Shown: positions 12,326-50,686, counted from the stretch's first letter. The stretch: 64,000 bases of DNA from an uncultured bacterium (GCA_963977015.1 CAXBMO010000003.1:32001-96000); one strand, 5' to 3'. The notes: generated from the sequence alone by a model not told the origin. Numbers and translations: made by a program.

Positions 12326-13768
12326 CTAGGAATCCGGTGATTCAGCATTTCCTCCGTCTTCGACGCCGCTTTCCGGGGTTTGATTCGCTCCTTCTCTCGC
12401 CAGTCGCTGAGTCATTTCCGGCTGAATTCGCCGCTCCCAGATATATCGCCGGAAGAGCACTTTGACGGCTGCGGTGAGGGGAACCGCGAGAAGCGCTCCG
12501 AGTAATCCACCAAGAAGCAGACCCCAGAAAAGCATTGAAAAAATGACCGTGATTGGATGGAGGCCAACGCTGTCGCCAACAATTTTCGGTGCCGTCACCA
12601 ATCCGTTGATCTGCTGTAGAATCACAAAAAGCAAAATCACGATGACGGCATAGGTGCCCACTTGTGTCGGTAGCCAATTCCAGGTGTTCGTGTAGATCTC
12701 GTAGCTGAGCGGGTTTCCCGCGGCATCGAGAATCGTCTCATGAATCCGATGATCACGGCCGGCCAACTCAGCTGCCGGAATCAGGGTTTTTGACCCAAAG
12801 TGCACCAGCGTGATAATAATCGTGGGAATCAGCACGATGAGCGAGCCGACGTAGGGAATGAGGCCGAGAATTGCGAGAAACACCCCCAGCAGGAGAGCGT
12901 AGGGCAGTCCCATGAAACTGAGGGCGATCGTGACAAGCAGCGCGTCAATCATGCTGACGAGCATTTGTCCGCGAAAATAGGCGATGAGATATTGATTGAT
13001 CTCTTTCAGGACATCGACCAGCTCGTCTTTGAGCTTCGATTTCCGGAGCGGAACATAGTCACTCCAATTCTTTGCGATGCTCGTGCTTTCCCGAAGGAAG
13101 AAGAACAGATAAATGGGAACGAGGAAAAACCCGAGGAGATAGCCCAATATCGAGGCGGCGCTGGAGAAACCTCGACCGAAAAAGACGGCCAATTCGTCCA
13201 TAAAGCCGCTCACGTGATCCCAAACCCAGCTTGAAAGCGTCCCGACATCCCAAGTGTTGTCTTCCGTCTTGAAACGTTGGACAAAGGTGAGGTTTCCAAC
13301 CCGTTCGTCAATCGATTGCAGAATATCATTCAGCTTCTGCTCAAGTTTCGTTTCGGTTTTCGTTCCCCCTTCCGGACGGTCTGTTGAGTCCTCAACGATG
13401 ATGCTGGGTATCTCCGTGAGATATTCAGCCGAGAATTTCTTGGCTTGTCGTACGGTTGGATAAATGACGAGGAACGCCAAAAGAAGCAGGAACGAGAGGA
13501 AGGAGAAAAAGACGGTATAGACGGCCCGTTTGCGTTCAACGCCCCGCTTGACCAGAAGAATGATCACGGGTTCCAGAAGGTAGGCCAGGATCGCGGCTAC
13601 GGCGACGGGAACAAGAACCGGCTGAAGATATCCCAAGCCCCAGCTTACGAGGAAGACCGCTCCAACCGAAATTGCACCCAGAACCACGATGCAGAAGGCA
13701 GTCAGGGCTGCCCAAGCCGTTTTCTTTTGGAACGTTGATGGAGAAAAATTGCGCACCTGAGAAATCAA
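12326..13768 (-). CDS. AI-2E family transporter (PerM/TqsA-like)
   Basis: AYLLEPV, YFRGQ, IPYVG, PKIVGDSVGLHP and GALLAVP; start codon uncertain. Confidence 0.9.
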   Translation of the reverse strand: MISQVRNFSPSTFQKKTAWAALTAFCIVVLGAISVGAVFLVSWGLGYLQPVLVPVAVAAILAYLLEPVIILLVKRGVERKRAVYTVFFSFLSFLLLLAFLVIYPTVRQAKKFSAEYLTEIPSIIVEDSTDRPEGGTKTETKLEQKLNDILQSIDERVGNLTFVQRFKTEDNTWDVGTLSSWVWDHVSGFMDELAVFFGRGFSSAASILGYLLGFFLVPIYLFFFLRESTSIAKNWSDYVPLRKSKLKDELVDVLKEINQYLIAYFRGQMLVSMIDALLVTIALSFMGLPYALLLGVFLAILGLIPYVGSLIVLIPTIIITLVHFGSKTLIPAAELAGRDHRIHETILDAAGNPLSYEIYTNTWNWLPTQVGTYAVIVILLFVILQQINGLVTAPKIVGDSVGLHPITVIFSMLFWGLLLGGLLGALLAVPLTAAVKVLFRRYIWERRIQPEMTQRLAREGANQTPESGVEDGGNAESPDS

Positions 13769-13936
13769 AATGAATTGATTCCCAACCCTTCATACGGTCT
13801 CAGGACAAATCAACTTTGGGTTCGTAGAATGCTAAATTCTGTTTAACGACATGGAAAAACGTTGGATTTGCCCTTCAATCTGCGCGACTGGTCCCTCGTA
13901 GCGCCGTCCTTTGGTTCATGGGGGCGAACTTTTACA

Positions 13937-14671
13937 ATGGCTGCGACCAATCAATTTTTCAGCTTAAGCCTGACCCGTCCCGGCGCAAAACGAGACGTCG
14001 TTGATCACAAGGAAAACGAGGATCGCGTGTTGGTGCGAGAGTTTAGCAAGGAGGAAACCTTCAGCGAATCTCCGACCATGCTGGTCGCGGTCGCTGATGG
14101 CGTCAGTCGATGTGCGGACGGTGGTGCGGTGGCCGAATGGTTGCTGACGCAAATTGATCGCGATGTGATTTTCGAAGAGAATCACCAGAAAACCCTCATC
14201 AATCAGTTTCACGATTACGCCGAGTCGCTCCGAGCCAAGTTCATGGTCGAGTTTAAGGACCGGCCTGAAATCCAGGAGAGCGGTTGCACGTTTGCAGCGG
14301 CATTGGTCAGCGGCGACACCGGTGCTGCTTACTGGGCTGGTGATTCGCCAGTCTATTTGATTACCCCGAATGGGGAGCGGTTGAAGGCCCGCACCCTCAC
14401 AATCGCCGACAAAGATCCTTATTCGGGAGCGCTGACCGATTGCTTTAGTGGGGTCACGCCATTTCGGGTGAAGCAGGCCGGGTTTAAGGTGGAGCCTGGC
14501 CACATCGTCGTGGCTGTGAGCGACGGGGTGGCCTACGACGGCGAAGACTTGGCTGCGACGATTCATTCCAACGGTTTTACGCAGGAGTGGATGGAGTCGA
14601 TTTGCCAGCAATCCTTCGATATGCCGTTTTCTGATGATATCAGTTTGGCGGGCGTCCGAATCGAGGATTGA
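13937..14671 (+). CDS. PP2C/SpoIIE-like protein phosphatase
   Basis: NED, VAVADG, GCT, WAGDSP, VSDGV and DDIS metal-binding motifs. Confidence 0.85.
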   Translation: MAATNQFFSLSLTRPGAKRDVVDHKENEDRVLVREFSKEETFSESPTMLVAVADGVSRCADGGAVAEWLLTQIDRDVIFEENHQKTLINQFHDYAESLRAKFMVEFKDRPEIQESGCTFAAALVSGDTGAAYWAGDSPVYLITPNGERLKARTLTIADKDPYSGALTDCFSGVTPFRVKQAGFKVEPGHIVVAVSDGVAYDGEDLAATIHSNGFTQEWMESICQQSFDMPFSDDISLAGVRIED

Positions 14672-14727
14672 AGCTTCCGAAAAAGGCGGTTGAGAGCGAG
14701 CCTTCCCTCGGGTAAATCTTTGCAGAT

Positions 14728-15792
14728 ATGCCTGACGAAACAGCGGTTCGCGAAACACTAGCCCAAGTAAAATACCCGGGATTTTCCCGTGATGTCGTTT
14801 CCTTTGGATTAGTCAAGGAGATCAAAATTGACGGAAGCGCAGTCGACGTTGTCTTCTCATTTGCGACGCGGGATCCCAAAGTTCCGGAGCAAATTTATAA
14901 GGACGCCCGGGCGGCTCTCGAAGCGATGGATGGCGTTGATGAGGTTCATCTTGAGTTTGATATCAAGGATCCGCCACAACAACAGCCGCCAGCAGCCGGG
15001 GGTGAAGGTGGAGTGATGGCTGATGCGAAAATTCCCGGAGTGAAGCACGTCATTGCGGTTGGCAGCGGCAAAGGTGGGGTAGGGAAGTCCACGGTGGCGG
15101 CGAATCTGGCCGTTGCGCTGCAGAAGACCGGCGCCCGCGTTGGGCTTTGCGACTGCGACCTTTATGGCCCGAGCGTCGCGATGATGTTCGGCAGCAATGA
15201 TCAGCCGATGGTGAACGAGGCGGATCAGATCATCCCAATTCGCGCTCACGGGCTTCAACTGATGTCGATGGGCTTTATGCTGGGCGATGATTCTCCAGTC
15301 ATTGTCCGGGGGCCGATGGCGACCCGCTACACCCAGCAGTTTCTCCGGAATGTTGCGTGGGATCAGCTCGATTACTTGATTCTCGATCTCCCGCCCGGAA
15401 CCGGCGATATTCAGCTTACCATCGTGCAAACGGCCTCGCTTTCCGGGGCTGTGATTGTCACGACCCCTCAGGAAGTTGCGTTGATTGACGCCCGCAAGGC
15501 CGTGGCCATGTTCGGGAAAGTGAACGTGGAGATTTTGGGGATCGTCGAGAACATGAGCTACTTCCTTTGCCCGAGTGATGGGAAACGCTACGACATCTTT
15601 GGAACCGGCGGCGGAAAGAAGGAGGCCGAGACTCTCGGAGTTCCACTTCTCGGGGAGATCCCAATTGATATCGAAACCCGGCAGGCTTGCGATGATGGAG
15701 AACCGATCGCGATTCGTGATGAGAAGGACAACGCAACCAGCAAGGTATTTGCGGAAATCGCCCAAAAGCTCATAGCCCGAGTCGATGCGTGA
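14728..15792 (+). CDS. mrp: Mrp/NBP35 (ApbC) iron-sulfur cluster carrier ATPase
   Basis: N-terminal DUF59-like domain; SGKGGVGKST, DLPPGTGD, VTTPQ and ENMSYFLCP. Confidence 0.95.
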   Translation: MPDETAVRETLAQVKYPGFSRDVVSFGLVKEIKIDGSAVDVVFSFATRDPKVPEQIYKDARAALEAMDGVDEVHLEFDIKDPPQQQPPAAGGEGGVMADAKIPGVKHVIAVGSGKGGVGKSTVAANLAVALQKTGARVGLCDCDLYGPSVAMMFGSNDQPMVNEADQIIPIRAHGLQLMSMGFMLGDDSPVIVRGPMATRYTQQFLRNVAWDQLDYLILDLPPGTGDIQLTIVQTASLSGAVIVTTPQEVALIDARKAVAMFGKVNVEILGIVENMSYFLCPSDGKRYDIFGTGGGKKEAETLGVPLLGEIPIDIETRQACDDGEPIAIRDEKDNATSKVFAEIAQKLIARVDA

Positions 15793-16217
15793 TTCGATTT
15801 GAAGTCATTCGCCCGGATCCTGGGTTTTCGCTGACCCTCGAGGAAGAGAGCGGAGAAGTGGAGTTGGAGTGTCCCTTCTCGGTTCCGCTTTTTTTCGCTC
15901 AGAATTGTCGGAAAGGCGACTTGATGCTCTGGCTCGATGTCGAAACCAACGTCGTCGGCATTTTTGCCGGAGACAGAAGGGTGGCTTGGCGCCACGCCAT
16001 GATCGCGAGGGCCAATATTGCCATCCTTCATCCCGCCAAGGGGCAATCTGGGGTCGTTGGATTCGAAGTCGGACTACGAGAGGAAGCCGGGGAGCGGCCG
16101 GTATTCGCGGTGGATGAATATTCCCGGGAGATTCTGGATTGGTTCAAGCTGCGGAGATCCGCTCTGAACGAGTACTTTGGAGTCGAAGTTGCGGTGAAGG
16201 ATTACGGAACTCTGTAG
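15789..16217 (+). CDS. Hypothetical protein
   Basis: GTGA overlap with the mrp stop; 142 aa; no motif recognised. Confidence 0.55.
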   Translation: MIRFEVIRPDPGFSLTLEEESGEVELECPFSVPLFFAQNCRKGDLMLWLDVETNVVGIFAGDRRVAWRHAMIARANIAILHPAKGQSGVVGFEVGLREEAGERPVFAVDEYSREILDWFKLRRSALNEYFGVEVAVKDYGTL

Positions 16218-16288
16218 CAAATTGGGGAATCCGAATAACTCGTTCTCGACGGACGCCCAAGGGTGAGGCAAAGTTGCTCCACCTCCAA

Positions 16289-18244
16289 ATGGCCGTCTCC
16301 CTCGGTAAACAATATGATAAGCGCGCATTTCTGGGCGCAAAAGCGCACAAACGCTGGAAGCAGACGATTGATCCCAAGCGTCACAAGAGCGACCGGGAAC
16401 GACTGAAGCGCATCGAAGGTCTCGCTCAAGAGATGAGCCTGATGGAGCAGGTGGATTTTCGCCGGAAAGTGCAGGAGTGGAGAGCATTGGCGGCAAACAA
16501 GGAGCTAAAGCTGGAGGAAATCATTGAGCCTGCCTTTGCGATGGTGAGAGAGGCGTCTCGCCGAACAACGGGACTTTTCCATTACCCCGAACAGATCCTG
16601 GCTGGGTTGGCACTCGTTCGGGGAGGAGTGGCGGAGATGGCGACGGGAGAAGGAAAGACCCTCGGGGTGACCTTGCCCGCCTTCGTGTTTGCCCTGTTCG
16701 GAGAAGGAGTTCACGTGATTACGGTCAACAGTTACCTGGCGGAACGTGACCACGAGTTTACCGCCCCCATCCTGGAATATTTGGGGATTTCCTCAGCCCT
16801 ATTGCTTGAGGGACAGGAGGGGACTCCCGTGAAGAAAAAAACCGCCTACCTGGCGGATGTGACCTACGGCGTCGGTTATGAGTTTGGGTTCGACTATCTG
16901 CGCGATCAACTCGCGTTGATTCGTGCGCCGAAATCCGGTCCGCGCGAACGATTGAGAAACGCGTTGATGGGCGTCAAAACGCCGGAACCGCCGGTCGTTC
17001 AACGAAAACTGGCCTACGCGATTATTGACGAGGTCGACAGCGTTCTGATTGATGAAGCGGGATCGCCTCTCGTCATCAGTGAATCTCCACCCGGTGAGAA
17101 CGAGGCGTCACCCGCTTATTGGTTGGCGCGCGATGTCGCTGAAGATCTGATCGCGGATCAGCATTTCGAGCTGAAGCTGGCCAATCGCGGCGTGAAGTTG
17201 ACCCACGAGGGGTTTGACCTTGTTCACGAATTTGAAAACATTCCATGGGATCTCCTGCGAAGACCGTGGCACACCTACGTCTTGAATGCTCTCCGTGCGC
17301 TGCACTTTTTCCAGCGAGACGTGCACTATGTGGTCGATGACGAAGACAAAGTCGTGATCATTGACGAGTTTACGGGCCGAAGATTTGAAGAGCGAACTTG
17401 GCGCGATGGACTTCACCAGGCGGTTGAAGCGAAAGAAGAGGTGGAGATTCGCTCGGAGACTGATTCTGCGGCGAGCATTACCCGGCAACGCTATTTCGGG
17501 TTTTACGAGACCATCTGTGGATTGACGGGAACCGCAGCCGAGAGTGCGGGCGAATTCTGGCACTTTTTCAAAATGGATGTGGAACCAGTTCCTCTCCACA
17601 AACCGAGTCAGCGAAAGATCCTTCCGGAACGTGTCTTTCAAACCCAGGACGCGATGTATCACGCCGTCGTTGCGGATGTCATTCAGCGGTACCAGACCTG
17701 GCAGCCAATCTTGATTGGAACCCGTACCATTCGAGCGAGTGAAGCCCTGGCGGAGTTGATGACCCAATCGGGAGTTCCTTTTACCTTGCTTACCGCCAAA
17801 CAAGACGAGGAGGAGAGCGAAATTGTGGCGAAAGCCGGACAACCAGGGCACGTGCTTCTCGCGACCAACATGGCAGGTCGCGGAACCCACATTGGCCTCA
17901 CGGACGACGCGAAAGCTGCCGGAGGTCTTCACGTGATCGTCGTCGAACGCAATGAGTCGATCCGTATCGACCGTCAGCTCATTGGCCGCGGTGCACGGCA
18001 AGGTGAGGTGGGCGGTGCGCAGATGTTTGTCAGCGCAGACGATCACCTGGTTGAGATGTATGCGCCGGAGCTGGCCACCGAGATGCGCAAGGCGCGAGCG
18101 GACTCCAACGGAGAGCTACCCGGAAAATTCAGCAAAGACTTTGATGAGCTTCAAGCAGAAGTTGAGCGTCGACGCTATGAACAGCGTTTGGCAATGGCCC
18201 ATCGCGACAAGTGGCTCGATGAAATCAAAACCAATCTGGCATGA
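16289..18244 (+). CDS. secA2: Truncated SecA paralog (SecA DEAD motor + PPXD, lacking most C-terminal domains)
   Basis: EMATGEGKT, ITVNSYLAERD, FGFDYLRD, IIDEVDSVLIDEA, GLHQAVEAKE, GLTGTA, TNMAGRG and DRQLIGRGARQG; the protein ends at about 650 aa. Confidence 0.9.
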   Translation: MAVSLGKQYDKRAFLGAKAHKRWKQTIDPKRHKSDRERLKRIEGLAQEMSLMEQVDFRRKVQEWRALAANKELKLEEIIEPAFAMVREASRRTTGLFHYPEQILAGLALVRGGVAEMATGEGKTLGVTLPAFVFALFGEGVHVITVNSYLAERDHEFTAPILEYLGISSALLLEGQEGTPVKKKTAYLADVTYGVGYEFGFDYLRDQLALIRAPKSGPRERLRNALMGVKTPEPPVVQRKLAYAIIDEVDSVLIDEAGSPLVISESPPGENEASPAYWLARDVAEDLIADQHFELKLANRGVKLTHEGFDLVHEFENIPWDLLRRPWHTYVLNALRALHFFQRDVHYVVDDEDKVVIIDEFTGRRFEERTWRDGLHQAVEAKEEVEIRSETDSAASITRQRYFGFYETICGLTGTAAESAGEFWHFFKMDVEPVPLHKPSQRKILPERVFQTQDAMYHAVVADVIQRYQTWQPILIGTRTIRASEALAELMTQSGVPFTLLTAKQDEEESEIVAKAGQPGHVLLATNMAGRGTHIGLTDDAKAAGGLHVIVVERNESIRIDRQLIGRGARQGEVGGAQMFVSADDHLVEMYAPELATEMRKARADSNGELPGKFSKDFDELQAEVERRRYEQRLAMAHRDKWLDEIKTNLA

Positions 18245-19056
18245 GAAACTACCTAACCCTATTCCTAATCACGTTGAGCGGAACTTTGGCGGCTCAGGAT
18301 ACTGAAGAAGTTCTGACCTATCTGGAGCCCTACCGTTCCATTGAAATTTCTCCGATTGAAATTGGAGTGATCAGTGAGGTGGTTGCCAACGAAGGCGACA
18401 AGGTATCGGTTGGCGACGTTCTGCTGAAACTTGATACGGAGATTACCGAGGCCCGGTTGGGTATCGCACAAATGCAGGCCGACAGTGAGGGCCGGGTACA
18501 AGCAGCGGAAGCTGAATTTGAACTCCAGCAGGACAGGACGGATCGCGTGGAGCGACTGAGCGGAGCCAGTGCCGCGGAAAAGCGCAAGGAGCGTGCCACG
18601 TTGAAAATCGCCGAAGGAAACCTGATCATCGCTCAGGAGGAACGGGAAAGTTACAAGCTTCAGGTGAAACAAATTGAAGCGGAATTGAGAAGACGGATTC
18701 TGACTAGTCCGATTGATGGGATCGTCACGGAGATTACGAAGGATGTCGCCGAGGCCGTTACTCCTTCTGAAATCCGGGAGGACAACTTTTTGGTCAGGGT
18801 CGTAAAAGTCGACCAACTCAGGTGTGTGGGGCATGTTCCAGAAAGTCTCGCCCGCTCGCTTCACGTGGGGGATAGTCTGGATGTTCGAATCGAAGACGGG
18901 AAAGACACCATGGTTCGGGGGAAGATTGAGTTTGTTTCAGCAGTGATCAATCCTGCCACGAAAACCATTCGAATTCGGTTAGTAATTGAGAACCAATCCG
19001 GGAAGCTTCGAAGTGGTTCTTCCGCCAACATCTTGATTCCGCGGAGACTTTCCTGA
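18241..19056 (+). CDS. Efflux/T1SS periplasmic adaptor (HlyD/RND membrane fusion protein)
   Basis: Signal peptide; lipoyl half-motifs GVISEVVANEGDKVSVGDVLLKLD and SPIDGIV; coiled hairpin; GKIEFVSAVINPATKT; LRSG. Confidence 0.9.
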   Translation: MRNYLTLFLITLSGTLAAQDTEEVLTYLEPYRSIEISPIEIGVISEVVANEGDKVSVGDVLLKLDTEITEARLGIAQMQADSEGRVQAAEAEFELQQDRTDRVERLSGASAAEKRKERATLKIAEGNLIIAQEERESYKLQVKQIEAELRRRILTSPIDGIVTEITKDVAEAVTPSEIREDNFLVRVVKVDQLRCVGHVPESLARSLHVGDSLDVRIEDGKDTMVRGKIEFVSAVINPATKTIRIRLVIENQSGKLRSGSSANILIPRRLS

Positions 19057-19071
19057 TCTGCCTCTAAAAGA

Positions 19072-19099
19072 TTGCTGAGAAATCGGGGACGGCTATAGT
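19072..19099 (+). promoter_or_regulatory. Putative sigma70 promoter of the L,D-transpeptidase gene
   Basis: TTGCTG-N16-TATAGT ending 33 nt upstream of ATG 19133. Confidence 0.4.
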
Positions 19100-19132
19100 C
19101 TGCTGCATGTTCGGTGAACGTAGTTTCCGTCG

Positions 19133-20113
19133 ATGAGTTCTCTCCACCATTCTTTGCTGACTCTGGCGCTGCTATTCTGCGTTTCGTCTGCGCACGCGTT
19201 TGGCGGTCTTTTTCAGCGGAAGGCAGGTCCCCCGGAGAGTCTGGAAGACATCGTGCTTGCCCAAATCGTGCTTGATGAGGGGCTAATGGGACCAGGGAAA
19301 ATCGATGGCAAGCTTGGTGAATTTACCGTCATCGCCGCACGGCACTACAATGAGCAGCGGAATCTGGCAGCAGACAATTGGTTCAGAATTCTGAAGGACG
19401 CGCAGAAAAACGTAAAGCAGCCGTTCACCTCGTATGTGGTTCGTGATCGCGATCATCAGTTCGTCGGTGCGGTTCCGGCTGATCCGGCTGATCAGGAGAA
19501 ACTCGAGTATTTATCCTATCGGTCGCTGCTGGAGCTAGTCGCAGAACGTTATCACACGGATGAAAGGTTCCTTCGCAAGATTAATCCGGGTCGCAATTTG
19601 GACCGATTGCGAGTTGGGGAATCGGTAACGGTTCCCAATGTCACACCGTTCGAGATTTCGGCGATTCGGAAACATCAGCGGTTTGGAGAGAACCAGACGT
19701 TGAGCAGTCGCTACGTCATCGTGGATACGCAGATTAAGGTCGCGTTAATCTACGAGAAGAAGGGTGGGAAGCTTGTTGCGTCATTCCCGATCACTCCAGG
19801 CGTGAAGAAATTCGTTCCCTATGGCGAGTGGACCATGACCACCATGGTAACCACACCGGAATTTCGATGGGACAAGCGGATGCTGGAGGAAGGCGAGCGA
19901 GGCGATGAATTTTTTCAGCTCCCTCCCGGCCCGAATAGTCCAGTTGGTGTGATTTGGGCCGGCTTATCCAAATCGGGTATCGGATTACATGGAACCAGCA
20001 GTCCGGAGACGATTGGTCGGTCTCGAAGTGCGGGTTGCATCCGGCTCGCGAATTGGGACGCTATACGGCTTAGTTCGGTCGTTCGTCCCGGAGCGGTCGT
20101 TATCGTGAAGTAA
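19133..20113 (+). CDS. L,D-transpeptidase (YkuD/ErfK family) with PG-binding/LysM-like segments
   Basis: Signal peptide; GKIDG PG-binding-like motif; PPGPNSPVG; GIGLHGT...SAGCIRL catalytic His/Cys. Confidence 0.92.
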   Translation: MSSLHHSLLTLALLFCVSSAHAFGGLFQRKAGPPESLEDIVLAQIVLDEGLMGPGKIDGKLGEFTVIAARHYNEQRNLAADNWFRILKDAQKNVKQPFTSYVVRDRDHQFVGAVPADPADQEKLEYLSYRSLLELVAERYHTDERFLRKINPGRNLDRLRVGESVTVPNVTPFEISAIRKHQRFGENQTLSSRYVIVDTQIKVALIYEKKGGKLVASFPITPGVKKFVPYGEWTMTTMVTTPEFRWDKRMLEEGERGDEFFQLPPGPNSPVGVIWAGLSKSGIGLHGTSSPETIGRSRSAGCIRLANWDAIRLSSVVRPGAVVIVK

Positions 20114-21218
20114 TCGTCCGAATATACTTCTCACAAATTTGGTAATACGTGATCATCGAGGCGATATCGATCCATTCATCGGCTGCATGCAGGCGTCCGA
20201 CCTCCGGGCGTGAAAGCATCACCGGGGTTCCTTCCTGGCAGATAAACCTGGCGTCACTGCCGCCAGAGGCTTTGGTCAAACTGACCTTCTTACCGGTAAC
20301 CTCTTCGGTGATCTGACAGAAGAGAGGGTCAGGCGCCAGGTGGGTTGGTTCCGCGCAGATGATGGGGTCCATCGCCACTTCCATTCCCAATACCTGGCGA
20401 ACCTCAGCCAGCATTCTCTCGACGGTGTAGGGAGGTGGAAAACGAAGGTCCAACAGTGCTTCTGCTTCGCCGGGGATACGGTTGATCGCCTCGTTAGGGG
20501 TCGAAACCTTTGTCACGGCACAGGTTGGAAACCAATTCCCGTTGCTCCCATCGCCTCTGGTGTCAGCGAAGTGATCTCTCAGCCGTGCCAACCGGCTGAT
20601 GAGTTTCTCCACGGCGTTTTCCGCCAACCAAGGACGAGCCGCGTGGCCAGCCTTTCCTTCGATACTCACCCTGAGATGGATGATGCCCTTCTCATCGGTG
20701 GTCACGTCGTTCAACGAACCTCCGTCGGGAATGATCGCCCGCGCGCATTCCAAACCCACTTCCTCAAAGAGGTAACGCACCCCATTTTCTCCGCCAATCT
20801 CTTCATCGGAAGTAAGGGCAATTCCAACCGGGCAACCTGGCAGATCCCGCTGGAGTTGGCGGAAGAGCTCGATCATGATCGCGTCAGCTCCCTTCATATC
20901 ACCAGCGCCAGGCCCAATGATGCGACCGTCCTCAACTTGTCCGCGATACACGGCTACATCCGAATGTTCGATGACGTCGATATGCCCACAGAGCAATACT
21001 TGAGGTCGAGTCAGCCCCTCAGGCATGGCAACGAGTGATTGGAACCCATTGGACTCGTAGCAATCGATTCTGACATCGGGAATCGCCTCAAGATGGTTCT
21101 CAATGAACTGAAAGCAGCGTTGCCGCTCATCCGGGTGGAGATCCGTGCTTCGGATCATCATCAGATCCCGGGTCAATGCGGTGATTCGTGCCGCGAGTTG
21201 TTGGTCTTCTGTCATCAT
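20100..21218 (-). CDS. M20 family metallopeptidase/amidohydrolase (ArgE/DapE-like)
   Basis: GHIDV, GPGAGDMKG, DEEIGG, GHAARPW, SDARF and HAADEW. Confidence 0.92.
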   Translation of the reverse strand: MMTEDQQLAARITALTRDLMMIRSTDLHPDERQRCFQFIENHLEAIPDVRIDCYESNGFQSLVAMPEGLTRPQVLLCGHIDVIEHSDVAVYRGQVEDGRIIGPGAGDMKGADAIMIELFRQLQRDLPGCPVGIALTSDEEIGGENGVRYLFEEVGLECARAIIPDGGSLNDVTTDEKGIIHLRVSIEGKAGHAARPWLAENAVEKLISRLARLRDHFADTRGDGSNGNWFPTCAVTKVSTPNEAINRIPGEAEALLDLRFPPPYTVERMLAEVRQVLGMEVAMDPIICAEPTHLAPDPLFCQITEEVTGKKVSLTKASGGSDARFICQEGTPVMLSRPEVGRLHAADEWIDIASMITYYQICEKYIRTITSR

Positions 21219-25395: not shown

Positions 25396-28300
25396 TCAGG
25401 CACCGCGTCCGCAGCACTGCTTAAACTTCTTGCCGCTTCCACAAGGACAGGCCTCGTTTCGGCCAACTTTGGGTTGTTCACGACGGACTGGTAAACTGAT
25501 TTTTGGTCCCTCGGGCTCTGAGCCGCCCCCGGAAGTCATCACCTGACCAGCACTTGCGGCTTTACTTGGCTGCTGCTGATCACCGAAGAGGTCTGCAAGT
25601 TCAGCCTTCAGGTTGCTGGCAGGCTGGGTTGGAACTCGAATGGTTCGGAAGGCAAAGAGGTTGCCGAGAGCTTCGAACTTGATGTTATCCATCAAGTCAA
25701 CAAAGAGGTTGTAGCCCTCCTTTTTGTATTCCACGAGTGGATCCTTCTGGCCTTGTGCCCGCCATCCGATCGCCTCGCGGAGACCGTCCATGGCGTAGAG
25801 GTGATCTCTCCAAAGGTTATCGATGGCCGAAAGAATGATGAAACGCTCAAGCTCATCAGCATGCTCAGGGTCCTCGTGAGACATCTTCCGGTCATAGGCC
25901 TCGCGAATACGCTCGATGATGAACATCTCCACGCCCTCGTCTGACTTGCTTTCGAAATCGGCGTCTTTCTCGCTGATCATGAGCGGGAAGGTGGAATTGA
26001 GCCAATGAAGAAGACCGGCTGTGTCGCGCTCCGGGCCGTCCGCTTCGAGATGCAGAAACTCGCTGACCTTCGCGGGAACGCATTCCTCAATCAACTCCAT
26101 GATGAGTGCTCTAGGATCCTCTGTCTGGAGAACCTCATTGCGGTAGCCGTAAATGACTTCCCGCTGTTGGTTCATCACATCGTCATACTGAAGAACCCAT
26201 TTGCGGCGAATGTAGTTTCGTTCCTCGACCTTCTTCTGTGCCATCTCGATGGTTTTCGTCAATAGGCCGCCTTCCAATTCCTGACCTTCTTCCAGCCCCA
26301 TCCGGTCCATCAACTTGGTCATCCGTTCAGATGCTCCATACTGACGCATCAGATCATCTTCAAAACTGACGAAGAAGATCGACTGTCCAGGGTCGCCCTG
26401 ACGTCCGGAACGACCTCGCAGCTGGCGGTCAATTCTTCGCGAAGGGTGGCGTTCGGTTCCGATCACGCGCAAGCCGCCAAGATCGGTAACGCCTTCGCCC
26501 AGTTTGATATCAGTTCCTCGACCCGCCATGTTCGTGGCAACCGTGACGGACCCTTTCTTACCGGCGCTTTGCACGATTTCGGCTTCCTGACGGTGATGTT
26601 TCGCGTTCAGGACGCTGTGAGGGATTTTGTCACGTTTCAGCATCTTGGAGAGAACCTCCGATGAACGCTCGCTCGCGGTTCCGAGTAGCAATGGTTGCCC
26701 CTTGTCGTGGGTCTCCTTCACCATATCCACGACCGCCGCCAGTTTTTCGCGTTGCGTCTTGTAAACGCGATCGTTGAGGTCTTCGCGGGCGATGGGTTTG
26801 TTCGTCGGCATGACCATCACGTCACACTTGTAAATATCCTGAAACTCAGCAGCTTCGGTCTCGGCCGTTCCCGTCATTCCAGCCATCTTTTCATACATCC
26901 GGAAGTAGTTCTGGATCGTGATGGTCGCCAGAGTCTGGGTTTCCTGGTCGATCTTGACGCCTTCCTTGGCCTCGACGGCTTGATGCAGTCCATCGCTCCA
27001 CCGGCGTCCCGGCATGGGGCGCCCGGTATTTTCGTCCAGAATCACAACTTTGTTGTCCGTCACCATGTAGTGGACGTCTTTCTCGAACAGGCAATAGGCC
27101 TTCAGAAGTTGACTGATCGAGTGCATTCTCTGAGCCTGGGAGTCCGCTTGCTCTTGGATCTCTTGCTTCTTTTTCTCGCGGTCGGCATCACTGAGAGAGG
27201 TGTCACCATCCATCTCGCTAAAAACCGTGGCGATGTCGTGAAGGACGAAGGCGTCTGGGTCGTCTGGATTGAGAAACTCGCGGCCTTTCTCGGTCAAATC
27301 GGCATCGTTCTGCTTCTCGTCGATGTTGAAGAACAACTCTTCTTTGAGGGCGAAAAGTTGGGCTTTTTGGGTGTCCTGATAGAACGAAAGTTCGGCCTTG
27401 TCGGTCGCGCGCCTCACTTCCGGGTCTTCCAGCATCCGCATGAGTTGGCGATGCCGGGGTTGCCCCAGTTTGACCCGGAAAAGGTTCATGCCAACTTCCT
27501 CCAAATCGCCTTCATCGAGCGCCTTTTTCGCGTCATTGGCGAATTTATTGCAAAGGGCGATCTGTTTTTTGACCAGTTGGTTAACGATGCCTTTGAACCG
27601 GTCAAACTGATGCGTTGAAGAGGCGACCGGACCGCTGATAATCAGTGGAGTGCGGGCTTCGTCAATCAGAATGGAGTCAACCTCATCAATCAACGCATAA
27701 TAGTGGCTTCGCTGGACTTGGTTTTCGACCGTTGTCGCCATTCCGTTGTCGCGAAGGTAGTCAAACCCAAACTCACTCGCCGTCCCATAGGTGATATCCG
27801 TTTGGTACTGCTCGCGCCTGACCGAGGGATCCTGATTGTTCTGAATGCAACCAACAGACAGGCCGAGCCAACGGAAAAGTTCCCCCATCCATTCACTATC
27901 CCGTCTCGCCAGATAGTCGTTCACGGTCACGACGTGGACACCCAGGCCGGTGAGAGCATTCAGATATACCGGGATGGTCGCGACAAGGGTTTTTCCCTCA
28001 CCCGTTGCCATCTCGGTGATGATTCCGCGGTGAAGGGCAATTCCACCGATCAACTGGACATCGAAGTGAACCATTTCCCAAGTGATCGGCAAATCGCAGA
28101 CATCCCAGGTTTTGCCGCACATCCGTCGCGACGCGTTTTTGACGACCGCGAAGGCTTCGGGAAGAATTTCGTCCAAATACTCGGCCCGTTTGTCGGGGAA
28201 CTCTTCGCGCAGTTCATCATAAAGTTTTTGGGAGTCGAGGATGGCTTCGATTTGAGACTCCTTGTTCCCGCTTTCTCCCTCAGTCTCCATTCGTCCGGCT

Positions 28301-28602
28301 AGATCGGCCGCTTTCGGAAACTCCTTGCTGAGCCCTCCCAACCGCTTCTGCCAGGACTTGATCAAATCGAGCCGCACCTCCTCCTCCATCGCCTCAATGT
28401 TGCGAGTCGCGAAGTATTCGACATCCTCTTCGTAGCGGGAGAGGTGTGCTTTCCATGCTGCCGTTTTCTCCTTGAGAACTTCTTCGGGTTCTTCCTGGAG
28501 TCGTTCTTCGATCGTGTTGATCTCCTGAACAATTGGCCACATCTGGCGCAATCGGCGCTGATTTTGATTACCGACGATTTTTTTGAAAACCCACTGGAGC
28601 AT
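25396..28602 (-). CDS. secA: Preprotein translocase subunit SecA (canonical)
   Basis: All motor motifs, HSD/HWD, two-helix finger (LREAIGWRAQGQKDPLVEYKKEG) and C-terminal SEC-C motif CPCGSGKKFKQCC. Confidence 0.98.
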   Translation of the reverse strand: MLQWVFKKIVGNQNQRRLRQMWPIVQEINTIEERLQEEPEEVLKEKTAAWKAHLSRYEEDVEYFATRNIEAMEEEVRLDLIKSWQKRLGGLSKEFPKAADLAGRMETEGESGNKESQIEAILDSQKLYDELREEFPDKRAEYLDEILPEAFAVVKNASRRMCGKTWDVCDLPITWEMVHFDVQLIGGIALHRGIITEMATGEGKTLVATIPVYLNALTGLGVHVVTVNDYLARRDSEWMGELFRWLGLSVGCIQNNQDPSVRREQYQTDITYGTASEFGFDYLRDNGMATTVENQVQRSHYYALIDEVDSILIDEARTPLIISGPVASSTHQFDRFKGIVNQLVKKQIALCNKFANDAKKALDEGDLEEVGMNLFRVKLGQPRHRQLMRMLEDPEVRRATDKAELSFYQDTQKAQLFALKEELFFNIDEKQNDADLTEKGREFLNPDDPDAFVLHDIATVFSEMDGDTSLSDADREKKKQEIQEQADSQAQRMHSISQLLKAYCLFEKDVHYMVTDNKVVILDENTGRPMPGRRWSDGLHQAVEAKEGVKIDQETQTLATITIQNYFRMYEKMAGMTGTAETEAAEFQDIYKCDVMVMPTNKPIAREDLNDRVYKTQREKLAAVVDMVKETHDKGQPLLLGTASERSSEVLSKMLKRDKIPHSVLNAKHHRQEAEIVQSAGKKGSVTVATNMAGRGTDIKLGEGVTDLGGLRVIGTERHPSRRIDRQLRGRSGRQGDPGQSIFFVSFEDDLMRQYGASERMTKLMDRMGLEEGQELEGGLLTKTIEMAQKKVEERNYIRRKWVLQYDDVMNQQREVIYGYRNEVLQTEDPRALIMELIEECVPAKVSEFLHLEADGPERDTAGLLHWLNSTFPLMISEKDADFESKSDEGVEMFIIERIREAYDRKMSHEDPEHADELERFIILSAIDNLWRDHLYAMDGLREAIGWRAQGQKDPLVEYKKEGYNLFVDLMDNIKFEALGNLFAFRTIRVPTQPASNLKAELADLFGDQQQPSKAASAGQVMTSGGGSEPEGPKISLPVRREQPKVGRNEACPCGSGKKFKQCCGRGA

Positions 28603-42723: not shown

Positions 42724-44994
42724 TCAGATTTCGTCCACCACGAAATGCACCCGGTGTAATTCCCCGGTTTCGCTATTTTCGGCCACAATTTGATGTTCTC
42801 CCGGCACGAGAAAGAGAAGGGCCCTCTTCTGATCAATTTCCAAGGTCGGAGAGGACCAGGTGACAAGGCTTGTGGAATTGGTGGCAAGAGACATGACGCG
42901 GCCTCCTTCGATGAGATCAGGATCCAAATAGATGACCATTCCGGGTAAGGGATTGGTGATCTCGAAACGGTCAGGAATAGAAGACTTGGTAATTGCCAAC
43001 TTTTGACGCACCGAGGATGGGGCGCCCTCGAGCCAAGGCGCATAGTGCTCGGGCAATAGAGCGCGCCCTTTCGCATCGTAGTCAAAAACCGTAGCTTCCT
43101 TGATCCAACTGGAGGTCTGGATGAACTCGGACACTGCTGGTTTCGTCGGATCATTCTGCTTATGACCGGTGTTCGGATCTACGTTGACCATTCGTAAAGT
43201 ATCCGGTTGGGGATACCAGGACGCTGGACGGTCCGCATGAAGCCGCTCCATCACGGAATGAAAAATGGGCCCCGCTCCGGCGACACCCGAAAAATGGTCG
43301 AGCGGTGTGTTGTCAAAGTTCCCGACCCAGACTCCGACCGTGTATTCAGGAGTAAAACCAACCGTCCATGCATCGCGATAGTCGGAACTGGTTCCGGTTT
43401 TTGCGGCGACTCGAAACGTCGGAAAGTTCAGCGGATTGCTCCATCCGAAGCTCTGGGCACGAGCTGCGTTATCACTCAGGATATCAGTTAACACGTAGCA
43501 GGCATCCTGATCAAAAAGTCGGGTTCCGGGTTGATCTTCTCCCGGGAAAAAACGGTAGGGTTTTGCGATTCCCAATCGAGCCAGACAGGCATAGGCATTG
43601 GTCAATTCAAGCAGGCGAACCTCGGCGCTTCCTATCGTGAGCCCCAACCCATATTCAGACGGCTCTTTGTCGAGTGAAGTAAGACCCAGCTCCTTGAGTC
43701 TCTCTTGCAACAGTGCTGGCCCGCCCAATTTTCTCAACATCCGGACGGCTGGAATGTTCAAGGAATTCCCCAGCGCCTGCCGAATCAGTACTGGCCCAGC
43801 ATAACTACGATCATAGTTCACCGGACGATAGACACCGGTTGAAGTCGGAAACTCGGTGGGAACGTCTGCCAAAACCGTTGTGGCGGGAAAGCCATTCTCC
43901 AACGCCAAAAGGTAGGTGAAGGGTTTCAGCGCGGATCCCGGGGAGCGGGCGGTCCACGCCCCATTGATCTGGCCGCCGTTTCGGTCGAAGTAATCTCGGG
44001 ATCCGGTCAGGACGCGAATGCTTCCGGTGGAGTTTTCAATGACGACAACGGCAGCGTGAAGAAAGGGGGACGTCAAGCGATGGCGGGCAATGAAGTCGAG
44101 GTGCTCGTCGATCGCTTGGTCCGCATGTTGCTGGAGTTCGAGGTTGAGCGTGGATTGAACGTTGCCCGGGTGTAGCTCATCAGGAAAGAGTTTGGCCATC
44201 AGCTCCACCGCGTGCGGTGCACGGAAGGTGCTCTTGCCTCCGACCAGAACCAGCTCTTCAGCACGAGCTCTCTTCCATCTGCTCTCGTCGATGTGCTCGT
44301 CCTCCAGCATTCGGTCGAGAATCCAAAGCTGTCGCTCCCGGGCACCAGCAAAGTTCTTATAGGGATTGAACCTGGTTGGCTTGTTGGGAAGCGCGGCAAG
44401 GAGGGCGGCTTCTGCGAGTGACAGGTCGGTCAATGGTTTTCCGAAATACCCTTGCGCTGCGGCGCGGCATCCCGTGCGCATGTTTCCGTAGGGCAACCGG
44501 TTGATGTAGTTCTCCAGAATCCACTCCTTGCTGTTGAACATCTCAATTTTTCGACCAGTCACGGACTCGATCACCTTTGCCTTCATTCCTCGGGGACGAG
44601 GGACGTCGGTGATCTTCACCAGCTGTTGCGTGATCGTCGATGCCCCTGAGATTGGATACCCGGCATCAATGGCTTCACCGATTGCCCGGAAGATCGCGAA
44701 AAAATCGATCCCCATGTGATCCCAAAACCGCTTGTCCTCCGCGGCGACGGTCGCGTTGATGAAATCCTCGGGAATCTCATCCAAACTCGCGTAGTCGCTG
44801 ATAACTTCTTCGCCGTTGACGAGGAACCGCCTCAGTGGGCGCCCATCTTCATCGGTAATAACGGTCGAGGGATCATTCGGTTGCGCCAATCCTTCTGGAA
44901 GGGGGACAAACAGCGGTACCAGCCAGAGAAAGGAAACCAGGTTCAGGATTCCAAACACTCCCAAACCAATGATGATCTTCAGGGATCTCTTCAT
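42724..44994 (-). CDS. pbpC: Penicillin-binding protein 1C
   Basis: Transglycosylase EDKRF/GASTITQQ; transpeptidase SALK, SLN, KTG; C-terminal PBP1C domain; lies downstream of alpha-2-macroglobulin. Confidence 0.92.
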   Translation of the reverse strand: MKRSLKIIIGLGVFGILNLVSFLWLVPLFVPLPEGLAQPNDPSTVITDEDGRPLRRFLVNGEEVISDYASLDEIPEDFINATVAAEDKRFWDHMGIDFFAIFRAIGEAIDAGYPISGASTITQQLVKITDVPRPRGMKAKVIESVTGRKIEMFNSKEWILENYINRLPYGNMRTGCRAAAQGYFGKPLTDLSLAEAALLAALPNKPTRFNPYKNFAGARERQLWILDRMLEDEHIDESRWKRARAEELVLVGGKSTFRAPHAVELMAKLFPDELHPGNVQSTLNLELQQHADQAIDEHLDFIARHRLTSPFLHAAVVVIENSTGSIRVLTGSRDYFDRNGGQINGAWTARSPGSALKPFTYLLALENGFPATTVLADVPTEFPTSTGVYRPVNYDRSYAGPVLIRQALGNSLNIPAVRMLRKLGGPALLQERLKELGLTSLDKEPSEYGLGLTIGSAEVRLLELTNAYACLARLGIAKPYRFFPGEDQPGTRLFDQDACYVLTDILSDNAARAQSFGWSNPLNFPTFRVAAKTGTSSDYRDAWTVGFTPEYTVGVWVGNFDNTPLDHFSGVAGAGPIFHSVMERLHADRPASWYPQPDTLRMVNVDPNTGHKQNDPTKPAVSEFIQTSSWIKEATVFDYDAKGRALLPEHYAPWLEGAPSSVRQKLAITKSSIPDRFEITNPLPGMVIYLDPDLIEGGRVMSLATNSTSLVTWSSPTLEIDQKRALLFLVPGEHQIVAENSETGELHRVHFVVDEI

Positions 44995-45025
44995 TCGACG
45001 TCTTCAGAACTATGAACACAGGGAA

Positions 45026-50419: not shown

Positions 50420-50686
50420 CTTACCGATTGGGTGTGTTTTGATTTCACGAACAATGTGAAAGGCTGCGAAGTAGATTTTATCAGACTGGTATCGGAAACT
50501 GAACGCAAAAAGAGACGGTCCTTTTGAGATTACCCCAGTTTGACGCAATCCCTTTCAAACTTGCGTGATAAAACTCCCCGAATTTTGTAGCGGCAGACAA
50601 CGATTTGGCCCTTTCTCGAAAGCTGCGGAATTGGCTTCTTCCCAATATTGGTTGTGGAGTTGGCGCGCTTTGCTTTACTCGCGCCT

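Follow-up and report, generated by a model that had tools for sequence, protein, structure and literature searches.

What does a SecA-type motor do when it ends where the helical scaffold begins and is followed by a single periplasmic adaptor? This question is raised by two overlapping genes, one for a truncated SecA-like ATPase and one for a short adaptor of the HlyD/MFP (membrane fusion protein) type, within a 64,000-nucleotide stretch of DNA from an uncultured bacterium (GCA_963977015.1 CAXBMO010000003.1:32001-96000; hereafter the window). A preliminary description of the window proposed that the ATPase may power a conduit resembling a type I secretion system (T1SS) rather than SecYEG. In our analysis, the two genes are probably the 3' half of a four-gene cassette of the 'secondary SecA_DEAD' kind engaged in giant-protein export, of which the 5' half is located on another contig (C7) and the outer-membrane efflux protein (OEP) 133 kb away. 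The kind of system has already been published as a genomic prediction, and this instance adds detail rather than discovery. New for this locus are the split cassette with its other half found, the strict 3:3:3:3:3 set of components in one genome, and a phylum-wide test of the link to proteins with the LEPR-XLL leader.

The truncated SecA-like ATPase and its adaptor

The SecA-like protein is composed of the first nucleotide-binding domain (NBD1), the preprotein cross-linking domain (PPXD), the second nucleotide-binding domain (NBD2) and a stub of the scaffold helix, with the Walker A motif MATGEGKT at residues 117-124 and DEVD at residues 247-250. Pfam search of the 651-aa open reading frame (ORF) detected SecA_DEAD, SecA_PP_bind and P-loop_SecA, and no match for SecA_SW (wing and scaffold) or SEC-C, whereas the canonical SecA of the same window carries all five domains. 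By BLASTP, the C-terminus QAEVERRRYEQRLAMAHRDKWLDE (residues 620-645) was paired with residues 787-812 of the canonical SecA, and the protein ends about 35 residues inside the canonical SecA_SW match, which begins at 777. The domain content, the lack of SEC-C, the wing and most of the scaffold, and the end near the scaffold start were all as given in the preliminary description. The two SecA proteins were aligned by BLASTP in two pieces, with 45% identity over NBD2 and 43% over NBD1, and against Bacillus subtilis SecA structures, residues 59-640 matched chain positions 43-600 of 778-802. Neither the canonical SecA models (TIGR00963, 563.6 bits vs a cut-off of 800; NF009538, 559.2 vs 814) nor the SecA2 models (TIGR03714, 449.8 vs 930; TIGR04221, 409.3 vs 725; TIGR04397, 550.9 vs 1085; NF012136, 400.3 vs 1100) were reached by this protein.

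As many as 7,957 database proteins match the SecA-like protein at E <=1e-50. The best 120 of these are 508-686 aa in length and carry SecA_DEAD, P-loop_SecA and PP_bind in every case and SecA_SW (PF07516) in none; their source names point to Verrucomicrobiales. Orthologs were found as unbroken frames of 648-714 aa in seven other genomes, and those at 59-87% identity are equal in length and keep the N-terminus M-x5-(K/S)QYDKR. Against same-genus orthologs, dN/dS was 0.024-0.037, with dS saturated. Because SecA_SW is missing from all of the best 120 homologs and dN/dS is around 0.03, these comparisons indicate that the truncation is natural and not an assembly artefact. The frameshift or assembly error considered in the preliminary description was thereby answered in favor of natural truncation, all 120 listed homologs being short and the frames in seven genomes unbroken. 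Within its own genome, the protein is 48-52% identical over its full length to two paralogs, on contigs C11 and C12, and 43-45% identical to the canonical SecA. Because the SecA tree was rooted on the latter as outgroup, it is no independent test of closeness to the truncated relatives.

Conservation was counted, unless stated otherwise, in an alignment of 99 full-length homologs. ATGEGKT (118-124) and both the Asp and Glu residues of DEVD are invariant (99/99), as are TNMAGRG, the Gly and Thr residues of the TGT motif, and G566, R567, R570 and G572; M117 and V249 are kept in 93 and 83 of the 99, respectively. The preliminary description had listed an insertion after FDYLRD and the changes to GRGTHI and QLIGRGARQGE. 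All were confirmed and are common to the C11 and C12 paralogs, and they are shared family-wide: the His of GRGTHI (for GRGTDI) is found in 94/99 homologs, the Arg of QLRGR is replaced by Ile or Val in 86/99, and P214, G217-P218, E220, L222-R223 and P234 of the insertion are conserved in most. The insertion faces a 20-residue gap in the canonical SecA (BLASTP) and also a gap in B. subtilis SecA. These changes are family signatures, not private mutations. At the other end, the C-terminus DKWLDEIK(T/A)NLA is retained by the same-genus orthologs, and W642 is at least 90% conserved among 75 sequences. Residues Q8 and Y9 of the N-terminus (window 16289-16330, + strand) are also at least 90% conserved in 75 sequences, within a QYD(K)R motif; this N-terminus, unlike that of the canonical SecA, is a candidate docking motif as judged from its conservation.

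The stop codon of the ATPase gene (TGA) overlaps the start codon of the adaptor gene in the sequence ATGA. This overlap with an HlyD/MFP gene had been claimed in the preliminary description, and the adaptor indeed passes the NCBIfam model TIGR01730 (RND_mfp) with 118.3 bits vs a cut-off of 94.9, covering positions 11-245 of the 322-position profile. The T1SS-specific adaptor model TIGR01843 gave 33.4 bits vs a cut-off of 208.65. The closest solved relative is MacA, over residues 27-254 of 369. Lipoyl, alpha-hairpin and beta-barrel parts are present, and the membrane-proximal domain is considered to be missing because only these portions of TIGR01730 and MacA were matched. The cleavable-looking signal peptide of the earlier claim also held, as read by eye: an AxA/QD cleavage site is kept in two same-genus orthologs (ALA/QD in G002 and ASA/QD in G001). 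The short adaptor gene adjoins the SecA-like gene at 12 of 13 loci of the closer clade, the exception being G017; in G021 the two genes are convergent. Since the adaptor is periplasmic, it cannot by itself connect the cytoplasmic ATPase to anything.

The divided cassette and its candidate cargo

Copies of the cassette proteins were counted by tblastn over the whole genome (G000). Exactly three copies each were found of the SecA-like protein, the short HlyD, a GAF-HlyD protein, an M50-HlyD protein and the cassette-type TolC-like OEP (3:3:3:3:3), and the genome holds four SecA_DEAD genes, one full-length and three truncated. On C12, GAF-HlyD, M50-HlyD, SecA-like and short HlyD genes are contiguous, with the OEP gene about 5 kb upstream; this order is that of the Methylobacterium extorquens operon described in PMC4452313. 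On C11, one strand carries GAF-HlyD, M50-HlyD, a 3766-aa LEPR-XLL gene, OEP, SecA-like and short HlyD in this order. The third set is dispersed: its SecA-like and short HlyD genes are in the window, and its GAF-HlyD (626 aa) and M50-HlyD (755 aa) genes are located alone among housekeeping genes on C7. The third OEP gene (C3:183839-185890; Pfam OEP 56.8 bits, no NCBIfam match) is 133 kb from the window pair, to which it is assigned because of its copy number and because it shares 61% identity with a cassette-adjacent OEP in G021. The adaptor had been described as lone; it has no partner gene in the window, but GAF-HlyD, M50-HlyD and OEP genes are present elsewhere in matching copy number. The claim that no ABC, RND or TolC gene is adjacent agreed with the Pfam search of the 64-kb window (ORFs of at least 250 aa plus five of 127-236 aa), which gave no ABC, RND, OEP/TolC or M50 domain. 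No ABC domain was found in the ORFs scanned at the window, C7, C11 and C12 loci, a genome-wide search for an ABC partner not being included. At the start of contig C7 (L007:275-7315), about 6 kb from the GAF-HlyD and M50-HlyD genes, a phage-type integrase, a family-B DNA polymerase (organellar/viral type) and a DUF3987 protein are encoded; this gene group is possibly an integrated mobile element.

SecA-like and M50-HlyD proteins were compared in 41 related genomes. The window SecA-like protein gave its best matches in G002 (87%), G001 (82%), G017 (64%), G005 (61%), G020 (59%) and G010 (59%), followed by the C12 paralog at 52%; the C7 M50-HlyD gave its best matches in G003 (90%), G002 (87%), G001 (80%), G020 (48%), G017 (48%) and G005 (46%), followed by the C12 paralog at 44%. 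In the maximum-likelihood SecA tree, the window gene was grouped with G002 and G001 (100/100), then with G017, G005 and G020; in the corresponding M50 tree, a quick search with SH-aLRT support only, the C7 gene was grouped with G003, G002 and G001 (100), then with G020, G005 and G017. In both trees these groups are located in a larger clade (99/98 and 99, respectively) together with the C12 copies, and the C11 copies form a sister clade. In G005, the orthologs of SecA-like, short HlyD, GAF-HlyD and M50-HlyD genes are contiguous, and in G021 the four orthologs are found together with an OEP gene and a frame that reaches 1,988 aa before it runs off the fetched stretch. Because the trees match and G005 keeps all four genes contiguous, the window pair and the C7 pair are identified, from these comparisons, as the parts of a single cassette that has been split after its second gene in this genus. 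The neighborhood in G002 is fully syntenic (PP2C, Mrp-like, 142-aa ORF, SecA-like, short HlyD, YkuD, M20 and ATP-grasp genes). M50-HlyD was detected in 16 of the 17 genomes with a SecA-like protein, the exception being G010 (80% complete), and the copy numbers of the two are equal in 14 of the 17.

Two further observations concern single relatives. In G017, the system seems still more dispersed: no short adaptor lies downstream of the SecA-like ortholog (L044, G017:C6), and no GAF-HlyD was found within 1.5 kb upstream of the M50-HlyD ortholog (L055, G017:C43). In G001, a 66-residue fragment (L042:12783-12965, G001:C5) sharing 79% identity with SecA-like residues 147-212 lies upstream of the intact ortholog, at a distance of about 1.5 kb, and is left over from a duplication or rearrangement.

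In the M50-HlyD partner on C7, the stretch from residue 150 to 460 includes about seven hydrophobic segments, and the HExxH and N..P....DG motifs are invariant across 77 M50-HlyD homologs. Residues 40-401 of the C7 protein match the NCBIfam model daptide_HExxH (NF041824; E 1.5e-41). The daptide enzyme MpaP is described as a site-2 protease with an N-terminal RRE (RiPP recognition element) that removes the leader peptide (10.1101/2023.03.08.531785). The C7 protein resembles MpaP in this model match and in both motifs, and differs from it in a score below the cut-off, in the fusion of HlyD at its C-terminus and in the lack of a Pfam PqqD/RRE match; as judged from sequence similarity, it is a homolog of MpaP and not a member of that family. 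MpaP acts on peptides, whereas the presumed substrates here are thousands of residues long. By analogy, the M50-HlyD protein may bind a leader.

Genes of this kind were described as 'secondary SecA_DEAD' genes, located beside HlyD, M50-like and GAF-HlyD genes and sometimes OEP genes (Kamneva, Poudel, Ward 2015, PMC4452313), in agreement with what the preliminary description had stated on SecA_DEAD genes beside T1SS-related genes. The locus is reported in that paper to occur in Verrucomicrobia, and the hypothesis was put forward that, in a system resembling the T1SS, the SecA_DEAD protein acts as ATPase and the M50-like membrane protein forms the pore. Our SecA-like protein shows the features of this family: SecA_DEAD without SecA_SW, presence in addition to a full-length SecA, and truncated closest relatives. 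The HlyD, M50-like-HlyD and GAF-HlyD companions are also present, the first overlapping its stop codon and the other two on C7. The second SecA_DEAD gene without SecA_SW and the gene order GAF, M50, SecA_DEAD, HlyD are as in M. extorquens, and the difference is that the window holds only the 3' half of the cassette. PMC4452313 names no substrate (both 'giant' and 'adhesin' occur 0 times), and the accessible part of its text describes neither multiple paralogous sets per genome nor a link to LEPR-XLL.

LEPR-XLL leaders were detected by search with NCBIfam NF012209. The 3766-aa giant in the C11 set passes this model and starts with a basic stretch followed by FEPLEPRILF. In total, 13 giant frames with this leader were found in the genome, ranging from 2,361 to 12,571 aa and summing to 84,295 aa (about 253 kb, or about 3.7% of the genome). 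Their N-termini are rich in Lys and Arg, followed by the motif (mostly LE[PA]R[IV]LYSAAPV) and then by an acidic proline-rich linker. Two of the 13 giants adjoin a machine and 11 do not. Four of them are arranged head to tail on the contig of the window (C3), about 136 kb past the window end.

The SecA-like protein and the LEPR-XLL leader occur together across the phylum. Of 301 genomes sampled evenly from the phylum, each at least 90% complete, 21 had both, three the SecA-like protein only, two LEPR-XLL only and 275 neither (Fisher p 5e-27; kin are not independent, and the carriers belong to at least 10 families). Thus, LEPR-XLL was detected in 21/24 genomes with the SecA-like protein vs 2/277 others. 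In six of the 24 carrier genomes, the SecA-like gene is followed by the start of a LEPR motif no more than about 450 bp downstream, and most LEPR-XLL frames in this sample exceed 1,000 aa, the longest being 20,466 aa. Among the 41 relatives, both were found in 16, the SecA-like protein only in one (G024, 80% complete), LEPR-XLL only in four (59%, 79% and 83% complete, and one weak match) and neither in 20. LEPR-XLL giants are also present in G017 (96% complete) and G001 (87% complete), in which the sole set is that of the window type. These findings suggest that the giant proteins with LEPR-XLL leader are the likely cargo of the cassette. The preliminary description knew of no substrate and no mechanism: a candidate substrate can now be named by co-occurrence, while the mechanism is still a proposal.

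Coordinates and neighboring genes

Table 1. Features of the window (positions counted from its first nucleotide) and LEPR-XLL frames on the contigs of the same genome
Feature	Position	Strand	Basis or remark
Truncated SecA-like ATPase, 'secondary SecA_DEAD' family, 651 aa	16289..18244	+	ORF and Pfam
SecA_DEAD (NBD1 with embedded PPXD), residues 30-424	16376..17560	+	Pfam E 4.1e-89
Family-specific insertion of ~21 residues (214-234) right after FDYLRD	16928..16990	+	gaps in alignments
SecA_PP_bind (preprotein cross-linking domain), residues 276-380	17114..17428	+	Pfam E 3.5e-25
NBD2, P-loop_SecA, best stretch residues 440-541	17606..17911	+	Pfam E 4.9e-45
Motif TNMAGRGTHI, residues 526-535 of the ATPase	17864-17893	+	
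Motif QLIGRGARQGE, residues 563-573, just past best P-loop_SecA stretch	17975-18007	+	
C-terminal stub, residues 620-651, vs first ~35 residues of canonical wing/scaffold	18146..18241	+	BLASTP
Short HlyD/MFP-type periplasmic adaptor, 271 aa	18241..19056	+	Pfam HlyD_D23, HlyD_3
ATGA overlap, ATPase stop (TGA) and adaptor start (ATG)	18241..18244	+	translational coupling
Signal-peptide-like N-terminus of adaptor, residues 1-18, ...TLAA/QD	18241..18294	+	read by eye
Canonical full-length SecA, 1068 aa, comparator outside the system	25396..28602	-	Pfam all SecA domains incl. SecA_SW, SEC-C
Giant LEPR-XLL frame	C37:6167-19882		NF012209
Giant LEPR-XLL frames (two genes)	C14:86630-151779		NF012209
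Giant LEPR-XLL frame	C6:25253-39625		NF012209
Giant LEPR-XLL frame	C12:81201-107849		NF012209
Giant LEPR-XLL frame	C5:215550-239513		NF012209
Giant LEPR-XLL frames (four in tandem)	C3:231727-314212		NF012209
Giant LEPR-XLL frame	C23:35611-42696		NF012209
Giant LEPR-XLL frame	C2:348325-359175		NF012209
Giant LEPR-XLL frame	C11:110433-121733		NF012209
188-aa frame with LEPR-XLL leader	C7:182729-183295		NF012209

The canonical SecA used for comparison passes the cut-offs of TIGR00963 and NF009538. It is unusually long, with a preprotein-binding region of about 176 residues vs about 70 in the paralog; its best model is of the long PRK12901 type, below the cut-off (1148.7 vs 1493), and PRK12904 is passed. 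A scan of positions 13500-20400 for promoters and terminators gave counts not above those of shuffled sequences and was uninformative. Among sequencing runs searched for positions 16289-19056, no RNA run was found, and of nine DNA runs none contained half or more of the sampled words (best share 0.48). No defense-system match was obtained by PADLOC for the window genes or the C7 partners.

Upstream of the ATPase gene, a 142-aa ORF (15789-16217, + strand) without family match starts with a GTG that overlaps the stop codon of an Mrp/NUBPL-like ATPase gene (14728-15792). The ORF has a counterpart of 48% identity in G002, but none was detected beside the G001 ortholog. With conservation in G002 only and no family match, a role for this ORF was dropped. 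Downstream of the short adaptor, a YkuD L,D-transpeptidase gene (19133-20113, + strand) follows in G000, G001 and G002, and an S11 D,D-carboxypeptidase gene (L007:12099-13070, - strand) follows the detached M50-HlyD gene in G000, G001, G002 and G003. A peptidoglycan-remodeling enzyme is thus encoded directly downstream of both cassette halves in this genus, and not in G020, G017 and G005. This arrangement may be coincidental, or it may be connected with how cargo passes the wall. Farther downstream (42724-50548, - strand), the window encodes a bacterial alpha-2-macroglobulin of 1840 aa (MG2, bMG3, A2M_BRD, A2M, bMG10), its gene being directly upstream of that for a transglycosylase/transpeptidase (756 aa), which we take to be the known pairing of A2M plus PBP1C type.

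Proposed mode of action, alternatives and meaning

A SecA-derived ATPase serving a T1SS-like conduit, and not SecYEG, would fit all findings described here. As a tentative model, to which we give somewhat less than even confidence, the cassette may constitute a distinct secretion pathway, in which a SecA-derived motor replaces the ABC transporter of a tripartite duct and threads giants of 2,400 to >12,000 residues N-terminus first, an intramembrane M50 protease fused to an adaptor reads and removes their LEPR-XLL leader, and the window set acts as the general-purpose copy for the 11 giants without a machine of their own. In the less far-reaching explanation, which we hold to be more likely than not, the cytoplasmic ATPase, N68-like and without the SecY-inserting finger or the autoinhibitory C-domain, would bind unfolded cargo through its clamp-forming PPXD and push it N-terminus first. 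The motor would dock on an inner-membrane assembly made up of two polytopic proteins, M50-HlyD and GAF-HlyD. M50-HlyD, through an N-terminal part homologous to an RRE-dependent leader peptidase, would recognize the cargo leader and cut it off, and the three HlyD-type adaptors, including the secreted one of the window, would form a periplasmic duct to the OEP.

Several systems offer comparison for this model. In classical T1SS substrates, the secretion signal is located at the C-terminus and is not cleaved, whereas the candidate cargo tag here is the N-terminal LEPR-XLL leader. The T1SS (HlyB-HlyD-TolC and LapBCE/LapA-type) shares with the cassette HlyD adaptors and an ATPase as energy source, together with very large, here presumed, cargo of surface type; a TolC-family protein would be a further common part if the OEP assigned to the window pair by copy number belongs to it. 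The cassette differs in that no ABC transporter was found in the scanned ORFs of the three loci, the motor is SecA-derived, and there are three different adaptors, one of them fused to an M50 protease. The E. coli SecA fragment N68 (residues 1-609) is reported to have high, unregulated ATPase activity, and the C34 part that it lacks to be regulatory and to carry SecY-interaction regions (PMC5456053). The window protein contains essentially the same DEAD motor and preprotein-binding domain, and the end points of the two would correspond; a motor of this build cannot insert a two-helix finger into SecY. N68 is, however, a laboratory fragment, whereas the window protein is natural and conserved, with signature changes and a distinct QYD N-terminus. 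In giant proteins of Omnitrophota and actinobacteria, SecA_DEAD/PP_bind without wing and scaffold has been described (10.1101/2023.11.21.568195), and a motor so reduced is proposed in that work to aid giant-protein export. The domain lies within the giant itself in those proteins, whereas the motor of the window is encoded separately, as a protein of 651 aa, in an operon with adaptors.

A number of observations weigh against the reading of the pair as half of an export cassette. Neither half of the split set has a cargo gene beside it, no LEPR-XLL match was found in three of the 24 genomes with the SecA-like protein, and no SecA-like match was obtained in G044, in which LEPR-XLL is clearly present. 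That no obvious hydrophobic core of Sec type is present in the N-termini of the 13 giants was judged by eye. The short adaptor is absent beside the SecA-like ortholog of G017 and, with the queries used, was detected at 0/10 SecA-like loci of the distant clade. The GAF match of the C7 GAF-HlyD is under its cut-off, the daptide_HExxH score of the C7 M50-HlyD is 142.9 bits vs a cut-off of 300, and no PqqD/RRE domain was found in its first 150 residues (Pfam, E up to 1). Within the larger clade the trees are incongruent, the C12 copy of G000 pairing with G010 in the SecA tree and with G021 in the M50 tree. PMC4452313 calls the biological role completely unknown, and no experimental study of any secondary SecA_DEAD member was found in the literature searched.

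Among other explanations, the window pair could be a spare or alternative motor and adaptor for any of the three membrane assemblies, or a conditional replacement for the C11 or C12 motor. The similarity of the three paralog sets (48-52% for SecA-like proteins, 36-46% for short adaptors) and the position of the pair among housekeeping genes, with no partner nearby, are in line with this. The 3:3:3:3:3 stoichiometry, the parallel phylogenies with the contiguous G005 cassette, and the presence of only the window-type set in G017 and G001 argue instead for a set with partners of its own, and a spare pair is unlikely.

The ATPase might alternatively be an accessory motor of SecA2 type that feeds SecYEG, the HlyD, M50 and OEP proteins acting afterwards in leader removal and outer-membrane passage. 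A Gram-positive SecA2 is likewise a specialized second SecA beside a housekeeping one, and SecA2-only systems of Gram-positive bacteria use the housekeeping SecY, as summarized in PMC4452313; here, too, the DEAD motor is complete and a preprotein cross-linking domain is kept, both at 43-45% identity to the canonical SecA. The SecA2 models (TIGR03714, TIGR04221, TIGR04397 and NF012136) are, however, full-length (762-776) and include the scaffold, whereas the window protein ends around model position 600 and reaches 400-551 bits where 725-1100 would be required. SEC-C and almost the entire wing/scaffold are missing, the C34 part of E. coli SecA being described as the holder of SecY sites (PMC5456053). 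Furthermore, the copy number of the SecA-like protein tracks M50-HlyD and not SecY, and the cargo leaders, by eye, are without a hydrophobic core of Sec type. Taken together, a SecYEG-feeding role appears rather improbable.

Homology of M50-HlyD to the daptide leader peptidase also brings to mind a RiPP-like system (peptides made on ribosomes and modified after translation), in which, as with daptide MpaP, small leader peptides are matured and exported and the link to giants is incidental; the daptide leader motif ELExMEAP is vaguely like LEPR-XLL (10.1101/2023.03.08.531785). Such a system is very improbable: no tailoring enzyme or short precursor gene was found beside the window pair or the C7 pair, M50-HlyD scores below the family cut-off, and the co-occurrence with LEPR-XLL is near-perfect, with frames mostly above 1,000 aa and direct adjacency in six genomes. 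Hardly credible is a decaying, functionless remnant or a truncation by frameshift or assembly error, for although the pair is separated from the other cassette genes and the SecA-like fragment near the G001 ortholog shows that rearrangements occur, the low dN/dS, the invariant catalytic motifs, the same length and ends in the orthologs of seven genomes and in 120/120 listed homologs, the genus-wide synteny and the three paralogs of the same architecture effectively refute a pseudogene or assembly error.

The export of LEPR-XLL giants through a SecA-driven conduit, if true, would mean that the SecA motor has been reused outside the Sec channel, as a new solution to giant-protein export. To our knowledge, type I systems driven by ABC transporters are the only ones for which it is understood how bacteria carry a protein many thousands of residues long through both membranes. 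The family would then also represent a natural experiment on the SecA motor without scaffold, wing and finger. The two genes, which looked like orphans, can now be annotated as belonging to a defined set of five components, of which they form one half. With its three paralogous sets and 13 candidate cargos, this genome lends itself to tests of specificity. The co-occurrence with LEPR-XLL gives the hypothesis of 2015 a concrete, testable substrate.

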